From assembly GCA_964536865.1 (NCBI GenBank), contig CAZHYN010000001.1, positions 16,195 through 80,194 of the forward strand: a stretch of DNA of 64,000 nucleotides, given 5' to 3'. The translations under genes and the position numbers were made by a program. The stretch comes from an uncultured Planctomycetia bacterium (GTDB lineage: Bacteria; Omnitrophota; Gorgyraeia; Duberdicusellales; 4484-171). This document shows, piece by piece, positions 13,359 through 43,327 of the stretch. The notes under the pieces were generated by a model. It did not search any database. It was not told the DNA's origin and worked only from the letters and a program-made list of their open reading frames with translations. Numbering within the stretch: the first letter of the stretch is position 1; every line of letters begins with the position of its first letter.

Positions 13359-13430
13359 GGCGGCGTAGCCAAGGGGGAAGGCAGTGGTCTGCAAAACCAC
13401 TATTCAGCGGTTCAAATCCGCTCGCCGCCT
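13359..13430 (+). tRNA. tRNA-Cys (GCA)
   Basis: Acceptor stem GGCGGCG/CGCCGCC, anticodon loop CTGCAAA, T-loop TTCAAAT, discriminator U; no encoded CCA. Confidence 0.8.
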
Positions 13431-13573
13431 TAAAGAAGAATTTTTAGGCGGAGAGGAGAAATAAATTTGTTTGTAGCAAGAGGTTATCTCTATAAGTTAT
13501 TCCCGCACTGCTTACAATTGAAGAGAGTAACATTAGGAAGAATTAAAAGTTGCTGAAGAGGAGAAAGAATTAT

Positions 13574-13659
13574 GGGCGGGTGGCGGAATAGGCAGACGCC
13601 TGGGACTTAAAATCCCATGTCCCGTAAGGGACGTGAGGGTTCGAGTCCCTCCCCGCCCA
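13574..13659 (+). tRNA. tRNA-Leu (TAA)
   Basis: Acceptor GGGCGGG/CCCGCCC, anticodon loop CTTAAAA, long variable arm GTCCCGTAAGGGAC, T-loop TTCGAGT. Confidence 0.8.
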
Positions 13660-13751
13660 GGTTAACAAAATTACAGATTTATCAATTATAAATTTCAAAT
13701 TTTATAAATTAATTTGTAATCTATAATTGGCTAATTTGAAATTATATTTTT

Positions 13752-13828
13752 GGGCGCATAGCTCAGGTGGCTAGAGCGTCACGTTGACATCGTGAAGGTC
13801 AGAGGTTCAAATCCTCTTGCGCCCACCA
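13752..13828 (+). tRNA. tRNA-Val (GAC), CCA encoded
   Basis: Acceptor GGGCGCA/TGCGCCC, D-loop AGCTCAGGTGGCTAGAGC, anticodon loop TTGACAT, T-loop TTCAAAT, 3' ACCA. Confidence 0.85.
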
Positions 13829-22762: not shown

Positions 22763-22925
22763 GAAAATTCCCTGCCTGTTGCGTGAGCAGGCATTGCGCC
22801 ACAGCCAACACTGTTTAAGAGGGAGCTTTTCTCTCCTACTGCTGAGGCAGTGGGAGGCGGCGCCCACCTGTATGAGGACCGGACTGTTGGTGGTAAGCCT
22901 GCCACGGACACAAGGCAGGGTTTTT
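22763..22925 (+). ncRNA. Structured small RNA of about 160 nt; candidate 6S RNA (ssrS)
   Basis: Locally GC-rich, non-coding region between a consensus promoter and a hairpin + U5 terminator (GCCTGCC...GGCAGGG TTTTT at 22906-22925); long-range complementarity between the 5' and 3' ends (CCCTGCC/GGCAGGG, GCAGGC/GCCTGC, CCACAGCCAACA/TGTTGGTGG) and internal hairpins; lies upstream of rarA and the 5-formyl-THF cyclo-ligase gene, the classical 6S linkage. Confidence 0.45.
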
Positions 22926-31475: not shown

Positions 31476-32011
31476 CTACTACTTCTAAGTTAGAGGAAAG
31501 GATTTTTATTGCTGGATTTGGAGGTCAAGGAGTGATGGTTTTGGGGAAAATTTTAGCTTGGGCAGGATTAAGGGAGAAGTGGGTGGTTAGCTGGTTGCCT
31601 TCTTATGGAGCAGAGATGCGCGGAGGCACTGCTCATTGTTTCGTGAGGTTAGCTTCTGGAAAGATTAGCTCTCCTACTTTTGTATACCCTACGGTAGCGT
31701 TCGTTTTTAACCAACTTAGTTGGGATAAGTTCACTCCTAAAGTAAAGAAAGCTAAATTAGTAATTGTTAATAGCTCACTAGTAAAAAGTAGGTATTTTCC
31801 TTCTAATGTGAGCTTAATTCCTCTTAACCAATTAGCTTTAGAGATAGGTTCTCTTAAGTTGGTTAATACTGTAGCTTTAGGATTCTTTTTAAAGAAGAGG
31901 AAATTGTTAAAGCTTTCCACAGTAGAGAGTGTTTTAAAAAATTTTTTTAAAGAGAGAAAAATCGTTGAAATGAATTTAAGGGCTCTGCAAGTAGGGATAA
32001 ATTATGGTTAA
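31472..32011 (+). CDS. 2-oxoacid:ferredoxin oxidoreductase gamma subunit
   Basis: FIAGFGGQGV motif; a GTG start at 31472 overlapping the beta stop (GTGA) gives the typical length of about 179 aa; the track ORF's ATG at 31424 is an in-frame upstream alternative. Confidence 0.75.
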   Translation: MTTTSKLEERIFIAGFGGQGVMVLGKILAWAGLREKWVVSWLPSYGAEMRGGTAHCFVRLASGKISSPTFVYPTVAFVFNQLSWDKFTPKVKKAKLVIVNSSLVKSRYFPSNVSLIPLNQLALEIGSLKLVNTVALGFFLKKRKLLKLSTVESVLKNFFKERKIVEMNLRALQVGINYG

Positions 32012-33293
32012 AACACGGTTTGCCCCTTCTCCTACAGGATTCCTTCATCTTGGAGGAGCAAGAACTTGTTTGTTTAGCTGGCTTTATGCTCGCAAGAGTA
32101 GAGGAAAATTTATTTTAAGGATTGAAGATACTGACCGCCTTCGTTCCAAGAAAGAATACTTAGAGGAAATTTTAGAAAGTTTAGTCTGGTTAGGCATTGA
32201 TTGGGACGAGATTTTTTATCAGTCCCAGCGACTTTCTATTTACCGAGAGTATGCCCAAAAATTAGTAGAGGAAGGGAAGGCTTACTATCGAGAGGGAGCA
32301 ATATTTTTTAAGTATCAATTTGATGAAGTAGAAATAGAGGATTTAATAAGAGGGAGAGTTACCTTTAGAGAACTTCCTAAGCAAGAGGAGGTAATTATAA
32401 AAAGCGACGGTACCCCTACTTACAACTTTGCTTGTAGTGTAGATGATGCTTTAATGGGAATAACTCACGTAATAAGAGGAGAAGATCATCTTTCCAACAC
32501 TCCTAAGCAAATTTTGATGTATAAGGCTTTAGGGATTTTTCCCCCCCAGTTTGCTCATATTCCCATGATTTTATCCCAAAGTGGAGGGAAAATGTCTAAA
32601 CGAGAAGGAGCCACTTCTATAAGAGAGTATAGAACTCAAGGATATCTACCGCAAGCAGTAGTAAATTATCTTCTTCTCTTAGGTTGGTCTCCTGGAGGAA
32701 ATAAAGAGATAATTTCCTTGAGAGAGGCAAGTCAGCTTTTTGAGTTAAAAGATGTGAATAAGAATTCCTCTACTTTCTCCCAAGATAAATTTGATTGGCT
32801 TAATGCTCAATATATAAAACTGAAGCCAATAGACGAACTTACTACTTTAGTGAAAGAGTTTTTAGAAGAAAAAAAATTTTTACCCCAGGGAGTAACGCTT
32901 GATTACTTAAGAAAAGTGGTAGTTCTCTTTAAAGAGAGAATTTCCAAGTTGGCAGATCTTATGGATTGGGGATACTTTTGCTTCCATGACGATTTTTCTT
33001 ACTCTTCGGATACCCAGGATATTTTAAAAAGAAAATTATCCAGAGAAATGGGGGTGTTAATAGAGAGGCTTTCCCAAATAGAGGATTTTACTAAAGAAAA
33101 TATAGAGAAAGAATTTCGCCAAACCGCTCATTTTTTAGGATTGAGAGCAAAAGATTTAGTGCACCCTACCCGTATAGCTCTAACGGGAAGAAAAGTTGGC
33201 CCTGGCCTTTTTGAGACTATGGAAGTTTTAGGGAAAGAGAAGGTAATAAAGAGATTAAGAAGACTGTGTGATTGGTGGAAGGAAAGAGATTAG
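32004..33293 (+). CDS. gltX: Glutamyl-tRNA synthetase
   Basis: Class I HLGG (HIGH-type) and KMSKR motifs; 429 aa. Confidence 0.9.
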   Translation: MVKTRFAPSPTGFLHLGGARTCLFSWLYARKSRGKFILRIEDTDRLRSKKEYLEEILESLVWLGIDWDEIFYQSQRLSIYREYAQKLVEEGKAYYREGAIFFKYQFDEVEIEDLIRGRVTFRELPKQEEVIIKSDGTPTYNFACSVDDALMGITHVIRGEDHLSNTPKQILMYKALGIFPPQFAHIPMILSQSGGKMSKREGATSIREYRTQGYLPQAVVNYLLLLGWSPGGNKEIISLREASQLFELKDVNKNSSTFSQDKFDWLNAQYIKLKPIDELTTLVKEFLEEKKFLPQGVTLDYLRKVVVLFKERISKLADLMDWGYFCFHDDFSYSSDTQDILKRKLSREMGVLIERLSQIEDFTKENIEKEFRQTAHFLGLRAKDLVHPTRIALTGRKVGPGLFETMEVLGKEKVIKRLRRLCDWWKERD

Positions 33294-33301
33294 TATTTTT
33301 C

Positions 33302-33330
33302 TTGACAAATTTCTTCTTTTAGGGTATATT
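33302..33330 (+). promoter_or_regulatory. Sigma70-type promoter of the pyr operon
   Basis: TTGACA (33302-33307), 17-nt spacer, TATATT (33325-33330). Confidence 0.55.
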
Positions 33331-33343
33331 TGAGAAAACCTTT

Positions 33344-33370
33344 AAGCTGGTCCCGTGAGGCCAGCAAGGA
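33344..33370 (+). promoter_or_regulatory. PyrR-binding RNA stem-loop (anti-antiterminator element)
   Basis: AAGCTGGTCCCGTGAGGCCAGC: stem GCTGG/CCAGC enclosing UCCCGUGAGGCC, matching the PyrR box consensus (A/G)UCCnGnGAGGyU; located in the pyrR leader. Confidence 0.65.
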
Positions 33371-33400
33371 GAGGAACAATGAAAAAGAAATTTAAAATTA

Positions 33401-33437
33401 AAAACCCACTTTCAAAGAGTGGGTTTTATTTTTTTTA
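33401..33437 (+). terminator. Intrinsic terminator (pyr attenuator)
   Basis: AAAACCCACT-ttcaaag-AGTGGGTTTT followed by ATTTTTTTT, immediately upstream of the pyrR start. Confidence 0.7.
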
Positions 33438-33439
33438 AA

Positions 33440-33994
33440 ATGAAGTTTAGAGAGAAAGCAAAGATTCTATCTTCCCAAGATATAAAAAGAATCCTTCACC
33501 GCCTAACTCATCAAATTTTAGAGAAAAATCCTGATCCTTACGAACTTGTTATTGTAGGAATTCAAACACGCGGTGTTTACTTAGCCAAGAGGATTCAAGA
33601 AATTATAGAGAAGGTAGAAGGTGTAAGGTTGCCTTTAGGGATTTTAGATATCACTCTATATCGAGATGATTTGACGATGATAAGGGAGGTTCCTTTAGTG
33701 AAGGAGACTAAAATCAGTTTTGATTTAAGTGATAAAGTGGTGATTTTAATAGACGACGTTTTGTTTACAGGAAGAACAGTAAGGTGCGCTTTAGATGAGA
33801 TTATGGATTTTGGTCGTCCTAAGAGAATAGAGCTTTTAGTTCTTATTGACCGAGGTCATCGTGAGCTCCCTATAAGGGCAGATTTTGTGGGTAAAAATAT
33901 TCCTACTGCTAAGAGAGAGTTGGTAGAGGTGAAACTTACTGAGATAGATGGAATCGATGAGGTGGTGATTTTAGAGAAAGAAGAGGATGATTAA
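33440..33994 (+). CDS. pyrR: Bifunctional pyr operon regulator / uracil phosphoribosyltransferase PyrR
   Basis: PRPP-binding motif [19 protein letters not shown]; ATG 33440 chosen over the track's GTG 33419, which lies inside the terminator hairpin. Confidence 0.85.
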
Positions 33995-34931
33995 CTGGCA
34001 GAAGAAACATATTCTAGGGATAAAAGATTTGACTCGCCAGGAGATGGAGATAGTATTTAATCTAGCAACGTCTTTTAAAGAGCTTTCTCAAAGAGAAGTG
34101 AAAAAGGCTCCTGCTTTGCGAGGAAAGACCGTGATAAATTTATTTTTTGAAAGCTCTACTCGTACACGCACATCTTTTGAGCTAGCTGCCAAGCGTTTAA
34201 GTGCCGATGTGTTAAATTTTTCTTCCTCAACAAGTAGTCTTAGCAAAGGAGAAACAATAGTCGATACTATTAAGAATTTAGAGTCTTATCATCCTGATAT
34301 TTTAGTGATAAGGGTAGGCTACTCTAATTCTCTTCAGTTTCTTTCTCAATATACCTCTGCTAGCATAGTTAACGCAGGAGACGGTGCTAATGAGCATCCT
34401 ACGCAAGCTTTACTTGATATGTTTACAGTTAAAGAAATAAAGGGAACTTTGGAAGGATTATCTGTGCTAATTGTGGGAGATATAAAACACTCTCGGGTAG
34501 CACGCTCTAACATCTTTGGATTTCAAAAATTTTCCTCTTCTCTTAAAGTATGTGGGCCACCTACTCTTATTCCCTATGAATTTCATAAGTTAGGAGTGGA
34601 TATTTCTTATAATTTGGATGAGTGTCTTCCTCAAGCAGATGTGATAATTTTTTTGAGAATTCAATGGGAACGGCAGAAATCTTCTTTTTTCCCTAGTATA
34701 AGAGAATACGTAAGTAACTTTTCTCTCACTCCTGAAAGAATAAAGAGAATAAAAAAGGATTGTCTTATTATGCATCCCGGTCCAGTAAATTGGGATATAG
34801 AGATAAGTTCCCAGTTAAAAGAAAGAATTCACCCTTTAATCCTTAAGCAAGTAGAGAATGGTTTAGCTATAAGAATGGCTACTCTTTATCTTGTAGGGAC
34901 ACAGAAAGGAGAGTATGAAGATACTAATTAG
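33987..34931 (+). CDS. pyrB: Aspartate carbamoyltransferase catalytic subunit
   Basis: STRTRTSFE and HPTQ motifs. Confidence 0.95.
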
Positions 34932-36204
34932 AGGGGCAAAGATAGTAAATTTTGATAGTATCGTAGAAGCGGATATTTTTATTCGCAATAGTCGTGTTGC
35001 TAAGATAGGAGAGGTTAATGAGGAGCCAGATAAAATTATTGATGCTCGAGGAAAATTTGTTCTTCCAGGATTGATTGATATGCACACTCATCTACGTACC
35101 CCGGGTAGAGAAGACGAAGAAGATTTGTGGTCTGGGTCAAAAGCAGCAGCTAAAGGTGGTTTTACTACCATCTTCTGTATGCCTAATACTAATCCTGCCT
35201 TAGATAACCAGGGTCAGGTGAATTGGCTTTTAGAGGAAGCAGAAAAAGTTGGGATATTAGAGATTCTTCCTGTGGGTGCGATTACTAAAGGCAGAGAAGG
35301 GAAAGAGTTATCGGAATTTGGAATGCTTAAACAAGCAGGATGTCTCTGTTTAAGTGATGATGGCAACCCCTTAGAAGATTCTTCTCTTTTAAGAAGAGCT
35401 TTAGAGTATGCTAAGATGTATGGTCTGCTTATTATTTCCCATTGTGAAGATAAAAACCTTTCTGCCTCAGGAAGTCTACGAGAGCACCTCATTTCCTCTA
35501 AGTATGGAGTGGAAGGGATTCCTTGGGCGAGTGAAAGCATAGCAGTATTTAGAGATGTAGAGTTAGCAAGGTACTTAGACACAAAAATCCATATTGCTCA
35601 CGTAAGTAGTAAAAGGAGTCTCCAAATTATAAAAAGAGCTAAAGAGGAAGGGGTAAAGGTAAGTTGCGAGACCGCCCCTCATTACTTTACTCTTACTATA
35701 GAAGATTTAGAGAAGAGTCATTTTCACCCTAACTTTAAAGTCAATCCTCCTTTAGGAGATAGAGAGGATCTAGAGGCAATAAGAGAAGGTTTAAAAGAAG
35801 GGGTAATTGATTGCATTGCTACTGATCATGCTCCTCACTCTCAGGGAGAGAAGGAGTTACCTTTTGAAGAAGCACCTCCTGGAGTTATAGGACTGGAATT
35901 AGCATTTTCTCTTTCCTATACTTATTTGGTGAAGAAACAGATATTAGATTTAAAAGACCTTGTAAAACTAATGTCTTATAATCCTGCAAATATCTTAGGT
36001 CTTAAGGATAAGGGGTATATAAAAGAGGGAGCTTGGGCAGATTTAGTTATTATAGATTTATCTAAGAGTTGGCAAGTACTCCCTCATAAACTTTTTTCTA
36101 AATCCAAAAATACACCGTTTATTGGTCATACTCTCGAAGGGGTAGTAGAGTACACTATCAGTAGAGGTAAGGTTGTTTATACTGAGAAAAATAAAAATGG
36201 TTAA
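34915..36204 (+). CDS. pyrC: Dihydroorotase
   Basis: DMHTHLR metal-binding motif; 429 aa. Confidence 0.9.
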   Translation: MKILIRGAKIVNFDSIVEADIFIRNSRVAKIGEVNEEPDKIIDARGKFVLPGLIDMHTHLRTPGREDEEDLWSGSKAAAKGGFTTIFCMPNTNPALDNQGQVNWLLEEAEKVGILEILPVGAITKGREGKELSEFGMLKQAGCLCLSDDGNPLEDSSLLRRALEYAKMYGLLIISHCEDKNLSASGSLREHLISSKYGVEGIPWASESIAVFRDVELARYLDTKIHIAHVSSKRSLQIIKRAKEEGVKVSCETAPHYFTLTIEDLEKSHFHPNFKVNPPLGDREDLEAIREGLKEGVIDCIATDHAPHSQGEKELPFEEAPPGVIGLELAFSLSYTYLVKKQILDLKDLVKLMSYNPANILGLKDKGYIKEGAWADLVIIDLSKSWQVLPHKLFSKSKNTPFIGHTLEGVVEYTISRGKVVYTEKNKNG

Positions 36205-38386: not shown

Positions 38387-38458
38387 GCCCCTGTAGCTCA
38401 ACGGATAGAGCACAGGCCTCCGGAGCCTGGAATACAGGTTCAATTCCTGTCAGGGGCA
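38387..38458 (+). tRNA. tRNA-Arg (CCG)
   Basis: Acceptor GCCCCTG/CAGGGGC, D-loop AGCTCAACGGATAGAGC, anticodon loop CTCCGGA, T-loop TTCAATT. Confidence 0.85.
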
Positions 38459-38470
38459 AAAGAGATTGTT

Positions 38471-38914
38471 ATGAATGTAGGAGTAATTGGAGGTTATAGT
38501 TGTTCAAGGAGAGCCTATAAACTCGCTAGGGAGGTAGGTCGACTCATCGCTCAGCAAGGGTGGATTTTAATCTGTGGAGGAGGTTCGGGAGTTATGGAAG
38601 CAGCTTGTTTAGGAGCAAAGGAGAAAGGGGGTATAACCTGCGGGATACTCCCCAGCTATACAGGGGAAGAAGCAAATCCTTATTTAGATATTAAAATTCC
38701 CACAGGGTTGGGCTATGCTCGTAATATTTTAGTGGTGAGAGCTTCCCATTGTTTAGTGGCTGTTGATGGTAAATATGGAACTCTTTCCGAGATAGCATTT
38801 GCTCTGAATGAAGGAAAACCTGTTTTGGGTATGGATACTTGGGATATAAAGGGAGTAGTAAAAGTAAAGAATCCTCGAGAAGCAATAGAGTATATTAAAA
38901 AGAAAATATTATGA
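38471..38914 (+). CDS. TIGR00725 / LOG-like Rossmann-fold protein
   Basis: CGGGSGVMEA and PTGLGYARN motifs of the LOG / DprA-like nucleotide-binding family. Confidence 0.65.
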   Translation: MNVGVIGGYSCSRRAYKLAREVGRLIAQQGWILICGGGSGVMEAACLGAKEKGGITCGILPSYTGEEANPYLDIKIPTGLGYARNILVVRASHCLVAVDGKYGTLSEIAFALNEGKPVLGMDTWDIKGVVKVKNPREAIEYIKKKIL

Positions 38915-40044
38915 AAGCAGCATTGTTTTTAGAGGATGGATTTTACCTGGAGGGGATAGGCTTTGGTTATCCTGGAGAGACAATTGGTGAGGTTGTTTTT
39001 AATACTTCTATGACAGGGTATCAGGAGATTTTAACCGACCCTTCCTATCGAGGTCAAATTGTCTGCATGACTTATCCTCTCATTGGAAATTATGGAGTGA
39101 ATTCCTCTGATACAGAGTCATCAAAAGTTCAGGTGGAGGGTTTTATTGTAAAGGAGCGTTCTCGCATAGAGAGTAATTGGCGGGCAGAAAGTTCCTTAGA
39201 GAATTATTTAAAAACAAACAGAGTAGTAGCAGTGGAGGGGGTGGATACGCGAGCGATAACCCGACGTCTGAGAGAAAAGGGTTCAATGAAAGGAGTAATC
39301 TCTGTTGTTGATTTTGATCAAGAGAGTCTACGGAGGAAGTTAGAGGATTTCCCTTCTATCGTAGGAAGAGACCTAGTAGCTGGGGTAACTACAAAAGAGG
39401 TTTATGAGTGGAAAGAGGATTTGGGGTTAAGAAGGATGAAGGAAGTAAAAAAGGCATCATTTACAGTAGTGGTGGTAGATTGCGGGGTTAAATTTAGTAT
39501 TTTGCGATGCTTAAAAGAGTATGTGGAGAGGGTAGTTGTTGTTCCCGCTAACACTCCTTTAAAAGAAATCTTAAAATTTAAACCTCAGGGAATCCTTTTC
39601 TCTAACGGTCCTGGAGACCCTCAGCCAGTGAGTTATGTAATCGAAACTGCTAGGGAGTTAATCCAGAGATTAAAGAAAAAAGAAATAAAAATAGGAGTTA
39701 TGGGGATATGTTTGGGTCATCAAATTTTAGGTCTTGCCTTTGGAGGGAAGGCTCAAAAACTAAAATTTGGTCATCATGGAGGAAACCATCCAGTAAAAGA
39801 TTTAACTACAGGAAGAATTGATATTACTAGTCAGAATCACAATTTTGTTATTCCTCCCCAAAGTATTCCTGAGGAAGGTTTAGTTCAGACACATATTAAT
39901 CTTTATGATCACACACCTGAAGGCTCTGAGCATAAAGAGTTACCTATCTTTAGCGTACAGTTTCATCCCGAAGCCGGTCCCGGGCCCTTTGATGCTCGTT
40001 ATATATTTGGTAAGTTCGTCGGTCTGATGAAAGTTTTATCCTAA
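38911..40044 (+). CDS. carA: Carbamoyl-phosphate synthase small (glutamine amidotransferase) subunit
   Basis: GICLGHQ catalytic Cys motif; 377 aa. Confidence 0.95.
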   Translation: MKAALFLEDGFYLEGIGFGYPGETIGEVVFNTSMTGYQEILTDPSYRGQIVCMTYPLIGNYGVNSSDTESSKVQVEGFIVKERSRIESNWRAESSLENYLKTNRVVAVEGVDTRAITRRLREKGSMKGVISVVDFDQESLRRKLEDFPSIVGRDLVAGVTTKEVYEWKEDLGLRRMKEVKKASFTVVVVDCGVKFSILRCLKEYVERVVVVPANTPLKEILKFKPQGILFSNGPGDPQPVSYVIETARELIQRLKKKEIKIGVMGICLGHQILGLAFGGKAQKLKFGHHGGNHPVKDLTTGRIDITSQNHNFVIPPQSIPEEGLVQTHINLYDHTPEGSEHKELPIFSVQFHPEAGPGPFDARYIFGKFVGLMKVLS

Positions 40045-40090
40045 TGTTTGGATGTTAGATGTTCGACATCCAATATGAAGAGGGAAAGTT

Positions 40091-43000
40091 ATGCCTAAAC
40101 GGAGAGACATAAAAAAAATTCTAATAATTGGTTCTGGCCCCATTGTTATTGGTCAGGCATGTGAATTTGATTACTCAGGGACACAAGCTTGTAAAGCTCT
40201 AAAAGAAGAAGGTTACCAAGTAATTCTTCTTAATTCCAATCCTGCAACGATTATGACTGATCCTGGGTTTGCCGATAGCACTTACATTGAGCCGATAACG
40301 GTAGAAGTTTTAGAAAAGGTAATTGCTCGGGAAAGACCTCAAGCCTGTCTTCCTACCTTGGGAGGACAAACCGGTCTTAACGTTGCTTTTGAGGCTGCCA
40401 AAAGAGGGATATTAGATGCCTACAAGGTGGAGTTAATTGGTGCTAACCGGGAAGCTATTGCCCGTGCCGAGGACAGAAAGCTGTTTAAACTCACTATGGA
40501 AAAAGCAGGGATCCCTTTACCTCGTTCTCGCACTGTCTATTCTCTAAAAGAGGCGGAGGAGGCTTTAGAATTCGTGGGTCTACCTTGTGTAGTAAGACCT
40601 GCGTTTACCTTAGGAGGTACAGGGGGAGGAATTGCTTACAATATTGAAGAGTTTAAAGCAGCTGTTAAACGAGGAATAGATGCCAGTTTAATTGGTGAGG
40701 TTTTGATTGAAGAGTACTTGGAAGGTTGGAAAGAGTTTGAGCTTGAGGTAATGAGAGATAAGAAAGATAACGTGGTTATTATCTGTTCTATAGAAAACTT
40801 TGATCCTATGGGAATTCATACCGGAGATTCTATTACTGTAGCTCCTGCTCAGACTTTGACTGATATAGAGTATCAAAGAATGCGAATCTATGCTATAAGA
40901 GCTATCAGGGCAATAGGAGTAGAGACGGGAGGGAGTAACATTCAATTTGCCATAAATCCTAAGGATGGAAGAATAGTGATTATTGAGATGAATCCCAGAG
41001 TTTCTCGTTCTTCTGCTTTGGCTTCTAAAGCAACAGGATTCCCTATTGCTAAGATTGCTGCTAAATTAGCTGTAGGGTTAACTTTAGATGAGATTCCTAA
41101 TGACATTACCAAAGAAACTCCTGCATCTTTTGAGCCTGCAATAGACTACTGCGTAGTCAAAATTCCTCGTTTTACTTTTGAAAAGTTTCCCAAAGCGGAC
41201 CCTGCTCTTAATACTTCTATGAAGTCAGTAGGGGAGGTGATGGCTATAGGAAGAACATTTAAGGAGGCCCTTCTTAAAGGGATAAGAGCTTTAGAGATTG
41301 GTAAATATGGATTAGAGTCTATGATAGATAAAGAGAAATTGCCTCTGGGAGAGGTAATAGAGAAAGTAAAGCAAAATTTAACCATTCCTAACGCGAAGAG
41401 GATTTTTTATATTGCCGATGCATTTCGTTTAGGATTTAAAGTAGAAGAGGTAGAAGGACTAACTCATATAGATAAGTGGTTCTTAAATAATATAAAAGAG
41501 CTTATTGATTTTGAGGAGAAGTTGAAGAAAGATAAGAAGTTAACTCCTTACATCTTACGAAAAGCAAAAGAGTTAGGTTTCTCTGATATTTACTTAGGTA
41601 AAATCCTTCAGATTTCTTCTGAGAGGATTCGTAAGATTAGAGAAAAAGAGAAGATTTTTGCTGTATACAAATTGGTAGATACCTGTGCAGGTGAATTTGA
41701 AGCTTATACTCCTTACTACTACTCAACCTATGAGTGTGAGTGTGAAGCGAGGGTTTCTCAAAGAAAGAAAGTGATGATTTTAGGAGGTGGTCCTAACCGG
41801 ATTGGTCAGGGGATTGAGTTTGACTACTGTTGTGTACACGCTGCCTTTGCTCTGAGAGAAGAAGGTATTGAGGTAATTATGGTAAATTGTAATCCCGAGA
41901 CGGTTTCTACTGATTATGATACCTCTGATAAGCTTTACTTTGAGCCAATAACCTTGGAGGATGTTTTAAATATTGTCCGTAAAGAGTCTCCCTGGGGAGT
42001 GATTCTCCAGTTCGGTGGTCAAACTCCTCTTAACTTAGCTTTGGGATTAGAGAAAGAAAAGGTAAATATTTTAGGAACAAAGGCAAAGTATATAGATATT
42101 GCTGAAGATAGGGATAAATTTAGGAGCCTTCTCTTAAAGTTAGGACTTAGACAACCGGAGAGCGGGATCGCTAAAAGTTTGGAGGAAGCAAAAAAGATAG
42201 CTTTTCAGATTGGCTTTCCTGTTTTAGTAAGGCCCTCCTACGTTTTAGGAGGTAGGGCAATGGAGATAGTCTACGACTTAGAAACTCTGGAGGGTTTTGT
42301 AAAGGAAGCTTTAGAATACTCTATGAATCAGACTATCCTTATTGATAAGTTCCTTGAAGATGCTATTGAGGTAGATGTGGATTTGATCGGCGATGGGAAG
42401 AATTTTGTTATTGGAGGTATCTTAGAGCACATTGAGGAAGCAGGGATTCATTCTGGAGATAGCGCAATGTGTCTTCCTCCTTTTAGCCTCCCTAAAGAGA
42501 TAGTAGACAAGATTAGAGAAGCAAGCTATGCCCTAGCAAGAGAACTAAATATTGTAGGTCTTATGAATCTCCAGCTAGCAGTGAAGAATCGCTCTATTTT
42601 TGTTCTAGAGGTGAACCCTCGAGCGTCAAGAACAGTTCCTTTTGTTTCTAAAGCTATAGGTGTAGCTCTGGCCAAATTAGCGGCTAAGGTAATGGCAGGC
42701 AATACCTTAAAACAGTTAGGATTTACCAAGGAGATAGTTCCTCTCTATCGGTGTGTGAAAGAAAGTGTTTTCCCTTTTAATCGTTTTCTAGGAGTAGATA
42801 TAATCTTGGGTCCTGAGATGAAATCTACTGGGGAGGTTATGGGAATAGATTTTGAATTTGGAAGAGCTTATCTTAAGAGCCAATTAGGAGCTTCACAGAA
42901 TTTACCTAAAGGAGGAGTGGTGTTTATCTCAGTAAGAGATAAAGATAAGAAAGGTATTGTTCCTGTAGCCAAGAGATTGAAAGAGCTAGGATTCAAAATC

Positions 43001-43327
43001 TTAACTACTCAAGGGACAGGGAAAATACTAAAGGAAGAAGGAATCGATGTAAAAGTCCTTCCTAAGCTTGCTGAAGGAAGACCCAATATTATAGACTACA
43101 TAAAAAACAAACAAGTTCATCTTATTATTAATACTCCCTCGGGAAGAATCCCCCGTAAAGATGAAACAGTGATAAGAAGTACAGCAACTCTTTATAGGGT
43201 TCCTTGCATTACTACTGTAAGTGGAGCCATTGCTTCTACCAAGGCTATAGAGGTTCTCCTCTCCCACGATGTAGAGGTGAAAAGTATTCAAGAATATCAT
43301 CATCTTCTGAACTCTTCTCAATTTTAG
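40091..43327 (+). CDS. carB: Carbamoyl-phosphate synthase large subunit
   Basis: 1078 aa with duplicated ATP-grasp halves and MGS-like C-terminal domain. Confidence 0.95.

Follow-up and report, generated by a model that had tools for sequence, protein, structure and literature searches.

A PyrR-binding hairpin, a leader open reading frame and an intrinsic terminator ahead of pyrR in Omnitrophota: a probable attenuator of the Thermus type

How would PyrR control the pyrR-pyrB-pyrC genes of an uncultivated member of the Omnitrophota, whose leader holds a PyrR-binding hairpin, an intrinsic terminator and a small open reading frame (ORF) that runs across that terminator? The genes lie on a Candidatus Omnitrophota genome fragment of about 36% G+C, a 64,000-nucleotide (nt) stretch of contig CAZHYN010000001.1 that is called the window here. 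All elements of the leader are found in the sequence, and it is confirmed as a real regulatory feature. With a probability of roughly three in four, we read it as a Thermus-type pyr attenuator, in which PyrR would gate translation of the leader ORF and the translating ribosome would be the antiterminator, with no switching of RNA folds by PyrR.

The pyr leader has the PyrR hairpin at its extreme 5' end. Transcription from the promoter listed in Table 1 is predicted to start near 33336-33338, which is 1-3 nt ahead of the PyrR box. The promoter hexamers match the consensus at 11 of 12 positions, and both are identical in two related loci, a contig from the Joint Genome Institute (JGI) that is 96% identical (L161) and the metagenome-assembled genome (MAG) B7_G16 (L001), which is the nearest relative of the window (PyrR identity 94%). 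The Rfam model of the PyrR binding site, RF00515, matches positions 33335-33435 at 57.9 bits against a gathering score of 54 (E 2.3e-5). This match is the only one within the 64 kb, and a regular-expression search agrees. The upper stem of the hairpin pairs GCUGGUC with GGCCAGC (33346-33352 and 33359-33365) around the loop CCGUGA. The lower stem is formed by CCUU(U) at 33339-33343, which pairs with AAGG at 33366-33369 in the Rfam alignment or with AGAGG at 33370-33374 in the minimum free energy (MFE) fold. An earlier, sequence-only reading of this DNA had placed a PyrR-binding stem-loop at 33344-33370; the stem-loop is present, and that placement was slightly wide and right in substance.

The 3' base of the hairpin doubles as the Shine-Dalgarno (SD) sequence of the leader ORF, a detail absent from the earlier reading. 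This SD, AAGGAGAGG, is followed by the 4-nt spacer AACA and then by ATG 33379, and it is among the strongest SD matches in the window. The 3' end of the hairpin lies 5-10 nt ahead of the leader AUG. The ATG itself is located 22 nt ahead of the terminator, and the ORF that it opens crosses both terminator arms and the T tract. A strong SD 4 nt ahead of ATG 33379 and a 19-codon ORF reading through the terminator to TAA 33436-33438 had both been pointed out from the sequence, and both are there. GTG 33355, which would open an ORF of 27 amino acids (aa), was rejected as the leader start; it belongs to the GUGAGG loop that is conserved in the PyrR box, and no SD precedes it.

The terminator stem comprises 12 base pairs (bp), 4 of them GC (33401-33412 with 33416-33427), and T8 occupies 33429-33436. 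With an energy of -14.4 kcal/mol (z = -3.8), it is more stable than all 200 shuffled sequences. The attenuator terminator was thus seen correctly before, its end having been given as 33437, one position beyond the limit in Table 1. The MFE fold of the full leader holds the PyrR hairpin and the terminator simultaneously, and the two are therefore compatible structures, not alternatives. When the terminator 3' arm is removed, 0 of the 12 nt of the 5' arm pair with upstream RNA in the window; the best duplex of this arm with any upstream segment reaches -5.5 kcal/mol, against -13.4 kcal/mol for the terminator. The segment 33353-33415, which extends from the loop of the hairpin to that of the terminator, has a folding energy of only -2.84 kcal/mol (z = +1.6), equalled or bettered by 195 of 200 shuffled sequences. 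The middle helix of RF00515 is almost entirely deleted in the alignment to the window. These predictions suggest that the window is without an RNA antiterminator competing with the terminator, which would leave a ribosome on the leader ORF as the only visible link between PyrR and termination.

Conservation was assessed in two sets of loci. The first comprises 80 pyrR loci taken from species-representative genomes, the majority being MAGs of Omnitrophota, and the second holds 80 more from metagenome contigs, found with the Thermus thermophilus PyrR taken from the 1ufr alignment as the query. A regular expression for the PyrR box located 118 boxes upstream of pyrR, which form 78 clusters at 80% leader identity, and a terminator was called in 63 of the 78 leader clusters. 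The inner hairpin has 72 distinct sequences among the 78 clusters and a fold of at least 4 bp in 77 of them. RF00515 at its gathering threshold detects 1 of 20 relatives' leaders and misses the Thermus leader, and the window passes it by only 4 bits.

The leader ORF is nearly universal in this sample: a start codon lies at most 16 nt from the AAGG of the box in 77 of the 78 clusters. ATG stands exactly 6-9 nt after AAGG in 68 clusters, compared with 5.2% at other leader positions (binomial p ~6e-76), and AAGGAG follows the box in 31 (next base A in 17, T in 7, C in 4 and G in 3). No start codon is found right after AAGG in L138 and L140, which have long leaders and sub-threshold Rfam PyrR matches. 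In 58 of 63 clusters the frame set by the start codon has no stop before the terminator 5' arm ends, whereas the +1 and +2 frames are open to the same point in 8/63 and 22/63 (Fisher p = 1e-20 and 1e-11), and the ORF runs through the whole terminator hairpin in 50 of 63. Geometry is constrained as well. The median distance from the start codon is 29 nt to the terminator 5' arm (interquartile range, IQR, 25-32) and 55 nt to the end of the 3' arm (IQR 50.5-59.5). These comparative counts place the combination of elements far beyond chance. They also bear out that the leader ORF and its SD, on which the sequence-only reading turned, are conserved in relatives.

The peptides encoded by these ORFs are unrelated between clades (the Thermus example is MRATRKRERKGRSGGLGLRLFLEVAGAL), and a functional leader peptide was rejected on this ground. 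The open frame is kept and the peptide is not. It follows that conservation bears on translating through the terminator and not on the peptide made. Six clusters carry a variant in which the ATG next to the box either is that of pyrR itself (L028, L031) or lies in the pyrR frame (L047, L116-L119). The AAGGAG of the box in L028 (layout at about 1459-1498) and L031 (about 319-358), one of which is labelled 'uncultured Planctomycetia', is the SD of pyrR, with the ATG 6 nt after AAGG and without a terminator. This layout indicates that the AAGGAG of the box can be taken as a ribosome-binding site. The in-frame ATG of L047 and L116-L119 would imply an N-terminally extended PyrR or a leader-PyrR fusion. 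Locus L047 (about 1408-2043) has its ATG after the PyrR box, in frame with pyrR, and reads through the terminator.

The same architecture has a precedent in Thermus. Van de Casteele et al. are said to have reported in 1997, for Thermus ZO5 / T. thermophilus, that the pyrR-pyrB-bbc-pyrC leader has a PyrR box, a leader peptide and a terminator, and no antiterminator. They reportedly proposed that PyrR blocks leader translation and that the ribosome is the antiterminator. To our knowledge, that model was drawn from inspection of the sequence and from data on repression by uracil, and it is not known to have been tested directly. Full-text literature searches returned no paper describing a PyrR leader peptide.

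Three T. thermophilus-like contigs in the sample (L081-L083), with PyrR 98-99% identical to 1ufr, have the box CCUUUAAACCGGUCCCGCGAGGCCGGAAAGGGGGAGAG and, immediately after it, the AUG that opens an ORF of 28 codons. This ORF runs through the terminator, GCGGAGGC-CUUG-GCCUCCGC with a U7 tract, and stops 8 nt inside a GTG-initiated pyrR. Other Thermus- and Meiothermus-like contigs have the same arrangement. The Thermus-like loci (L081-L096) share with the window a PyrR box right at the leader's 5' end, a box 3' strand that serves as SD (AAGG(G)GAG, with AUG or GUG 7-9 nt after AAGG in Thermus), an ORF that passes through the terminator and T tract (25-32 codons and a GC-rich terminator in Thermus) and pyrR as the first gene of the operon; their ORF ends overlap the pyrR start. 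The window belongs to the Omnitrophota and not to the Deinococcota, its G+C content (36%) is very different, and its ORF is shorter (19 codons) and Lys-rich and encodes an unrelated peptide. Its ORF stops 1 nt before the pyrR ATG and not 8 nt inside the gene, and its pyrR has no SD, whereas that of Thermus has GGAGGUG. Every sequence-level feature of a Thermus-type PyrR / leader-ORF attenuator appears to be present in the window. The design itself is not new, the window being a further example of it in another phylum.

The sequence-only reading began pyrR at ATG 33440 (TAAAATG) without an SD of its own, and the sequence and the SD scan agree, with no SD-like match within 20 nt upstream of this ATG. 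It had named pyrR translation from GTG 33419 as a finding that would count against it, and this is not what was found. That GTG lies within the terminator 3' arm and has no SD, and it would add 7 residues that reach beyond the N-terminus of all solved PyrRs. Its equivalent in L001 is out of frame with pyrR, leaving the ATG as the only candidate start there. The product of ATG 33440 is PyrR, a bifunctional regulator and uracil phosphoribosyltransferase (UPRTase), by full-length matches to the equivalog model NCBIfam NF003549 (244.5 bits, cut-off 138) and to the solved structures 1non, 1ufr and 1a3c (E 1e-57 to 1e-63, the best, 1e-63, being Bacillus caldolyticus PyrR). Residues 2-3 of the B. caldolyticus, T. 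thermophilus and B. subtilis structures align at residue 4 of this product, and the NF003549 alignment likewise begins at residue 4. Gene calling in the JGI contig (L161 1501-2076, P0001) nevertheless begins pyrR at the GTG, for a product of 191 aa compared with 184. Other PyrR matches of 190-198 aa may be N-terminally over-extended in the same way; P0001 alone was checked.

The junction at 33436-33442 (+ strand) reads TAA-A-ATG, so that the leader stop lies 1 nt ahead of the pyrR ATG, and it is conserved in L161 and L001. The window and L001 differ by two indels, +1 immediately ahead of the hairpin and -1 within the T tract, and in both the TAA is still 1 nt before the ATG. As evidence that the junction is kept, these paired changes are suggestive rather than decisive, because an uncompensated frame would end at an ATGA overlap anyway. 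Of the 63 clusters in which a terminator was called, 12 have such an ATGA overlap of leader stop and pyrR start. The sequence-only reading took the missing SD as a sign of termination-reinitiation coupling. Coupling is plausible, since 36 of 71 clusters have a leader stop that adjoins the start of pyrR or overlaps with it. The stronger argument, that a pyrR without SD must reinitiate, is weakened by the frequency of SD-less ORFs in the window: at the best candidate start, 17 of 50 long ORFs have no SD match of at least 4 nt, and only 15 of 50 have one of at least 5 nt. Four relatives (L002, L006, L018, L078) combine an SD-less pyrR with a leader stop 20-30 nt upstream. Reinitiation at the pyrR ATG is thus plausible and would not be required, because SD-less starts are common in the window and the leader stops of some relatives lie well upstream.

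The elements suggest the following sequence of events. At high pyrimidine levels, PyrR bound to uridine monophosphate (UMP) or uridine triphosphate (UTP) would clamp the hairpin, so that the 30S subunit could reach neither the SD nor the AUG. The footprint of a 30S subunit on AUG 33379 would cover roughly 33359-33394, and both the SD and the AUG would hence be inaccessible under PyrR. With the leader untranslated, the terminator would form and transcription would end in the T8 tract. At low pyrimidine levels, the weak lower stem of 4-5 bp would open and a ribosome would load on the leader SD. Trailing the RNA polymerase, this ribosome would cover 33401-33412 before 33416-33427 emerges. The terminator would then be blocked, and the polymerase would continue into pyrR-pyrB-pyrC. 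The ribosome would terminate at the leader TAA and, with the pyrR AUG only 1 nt further on, may reinitiate at that AUG, which would add translational coupling.

Several observations weigh against this mechanism. We infer leader translation, PyrR binding and regulated termination for this organism and phylum from sequence. The timing is tight: the T tract ends only about 57 nt after the leader AUG, and the ribosome must load and move 4-7 codons in roughly 1 s unless the polymerase pauses. No polymerase pause signal was identified in the leader. The AAGG belongs to the PyrR consensus anyway, which accounts in part for the strength of the SD. Three loci (L023, L026, L080) have only a 2-codon ORF (Met-Lys-stop) that ends well short of the terminator, and the ORFs of a few relatives stop within the hairpin loop. 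MFE folds pair at least 5 nt of the terminator 5' arm upstream in 31 of 63 clusters, the window not being among them. Predicted antiterminators are clear in the Firmicutes loci L064, L067 and L070, where AAGGCAGAC pairs with GUCUGCCUU and a leader ORF is also present, and in the Omnitrophota clade of L010 (L010, L013, L016, L017, L022, L043 and others), where the pairing joins the terminator 5' arm to the box's 5' strand; the convincing cases include Desulfitobacterium and Syntrophomonadaceae. ORF and antiterminator coexist in such leaders, and the role of the ORF may therefore not be solely to replace an antiterminator.

PyrR could instead act as a translational repressor only, blocking the leader ORF and, by coupling, pyrR, with a terminator that is constitutive or leaky, also serves gltX and is unregulated. 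Fields & Switzer reportedly described in 2007 such PyrR-dependent translational repression for the pyr operon of Mycobacterium smegmatis. The PyrR hairpin of the window overlaps the ribosome-binding site of the ORF directly downstream, as it does in M. smegmatis, and the direct box-on-pyrR layout of the Mycobacterium type is present in the relatives L028 and L031. The TAA-A-ATG junction suits coupling, and the stretch from the gltX stop (33293) to the pyr promoter holds no terminator of its own. However, the occluded site in the window is that of the leader ORF and not that of pyrR, and a strong terminator follows, which sets the window apart from the Mycobacterium type. Pure coupling needs neither a frame open over the terminator 5' arm (58/63) nor a constrained distance to the hairpin. 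A ribosome translating 33401-33427 must melt the hairpin, and an unregulated terminator with a 12-bp stem and T8 would cripple expression of pyrR-pyrB-pyrC. We regard repression of translation as the sole action of PyrR here as unlikely.

The leader could also be a classical attenuator as in Bacillus, in which an undetected RNA antiterminator is opposed by an anti-antiterminator that PyrR stabilises, and the small ORF is incidental. The window shares with the Bacillus subtilis pyr attenuators the PyrR family, the consensus of the binding hairpin and a downstream intrinsic terminator, and the same sign of regulation is expected. The match to RF00515, a model derived from leaders of the Bacillus type, exceeds the gathering threshold, and some relatives have candidate antiterminators. 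The window itself has no antiterminator helix, unlike B. subtilis. None of the 12 nt of its terminator 5' arm pairs upstream (best duplex -5.5 kcal/mol), 195 of 200 shuffles fold better than the RNA between the hairpins, and the middle helix of RF00515 is missing from the alignment. It also has an SD, an ATG and an ORF, whereas the RF00515 consensus has no AUG after AAGG. A conserved ATG position (p ~6e-76) and a conserved frame (1e-11) cannot be incidental, and this explanation is very improbable for the window.

The leader of Escherichia coli pyrBI also has an ORF across an intrinsic terminator; a closely following ribosome prevents the hairpin from forming, and the process depends on UTP-dependent pausing and involves no protein factor. 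Enteric sensing of this kind, in which low UTP would slow the polymerase at U-rich sites until the leader ribosome catches up and PyrR would be secondary, shares with the window the E. coli / Salmonella layout of a leader ORF reading through the attenuator terminator, but is highly improbable given a genuine PyrR box (predicted to gate ribosome loading) and pyrR, only 5 U in the 19 nt of the A-rich segment 33382-33400 and thus no U-rich pause region, a start-to-hairpin spacer of 48% A and 23% U across the clusters, and a Thermus spacer that is almost U-free.

The sequence-only reading had described the leader as a hybrid of PyrR-mediated, Bacillus-type attenuation and ribosome-mediated attenuation of the pyrBI type. 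Its account is supported and essentially right. The Bacillus-type half is incomplete, for the window has no RNA antiterminator, and the pyrBI-type half shares only the logic of a ribosome as antiterminator, an obvious U-rich pause region being absent. The hybrid is not new, the same architecture being found in Thermus.

Table 1. Features of the pyr leader and its flanking genes, in window coordinates.
Feature	Position	Strand	Description and basis
gltX	32004-33293	+	Upstream neighbour of the pyr leader; identity by NCBIfam
pyr promoter, sigma-70-type (predicted)	33302-33330	+	TTGACA 33302-33307, 17-nt spacer, TATATT 33325-33330
PyrR-binding hairpin	33339-33374	+	Rfam RF00515; MFE fold -15.8 kcal/mol
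Shine-Dalgarno of leader ORF	33366-33374	+	AAGGAGAGG; from sequence, 6-nt exact AAGGAG match
Leader ORF	33379-33438	+	19 codons, Lys-rich; stop TAA 33436-33438
Intrinsic terminator (attenuator)	33401-33436	+	12-bp stem, loop CAA, A then T8
pyrR	33440-33994	+	184 aa; first gene of pyrR-pyrB-pyrC; NCBIfam and PDB matches
pyrB	33987-34931	+	NCBIfam
pyrC	34915-36204	+	NCBIfam

The pyr promoter is closely packed against gltX, with only 8 nt from the gltX stop to the -35 hexamer (33291-33307). No terminator was found between the gltX stop (33293) and the promoter, and gltX read-through transcripts would therefore enter the PyrR box and attenuator. The genes carA (377 aa) and carB (1078 aa) form a separate unit at 38911-43327 (+ strand), 2.7 kb downstream of pyrC. 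The Rfam and regular-expression searches found no further PyrR box in the 64-kb window, for example before carA/carB, and therefore only pyrR-pyrB-pyrC appears to be PyrR-controlled within it. Four tRNA genes lie on the + strand, three of them clustered at 13359-13825 and one (38387-38458) just upstream of carA. A match to 6S / SsrS RNA (RF00013; 52.5 bits, gathering score 46.4) is located at 22766-22925 (+ strand).

For annotation, the leader has two practical consequences. Automated annotation puts the start of pyrR on a GTG within the terminator, for 191 aa compared with 184, and RF00515 at its gathering score misses most leaders of the Thermus type. For the PyrR family, the window extends a rarely cited design, in which an RNA-binding protein would control ribosome loading and ribosome loading would control a terminator, to the uncultivated phylum Omnitrophota. 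Phylogenetic support for this design comes from a conserved start position, an open frame and a constrained geometry, without conservation of the peptide. Gating of a leader ORF appears to form a continuum with direct repression of pyrR (L028, L031) and with in-frame leader-PyrR fusions (L047, L116-L119). The chances seem evenly balanced that PyrR-gated translation of a leader ORF prevails in the pyr control of Omnitrophota, Deinococcota and several other lineages, in which case it would be no Thermus curiosity.

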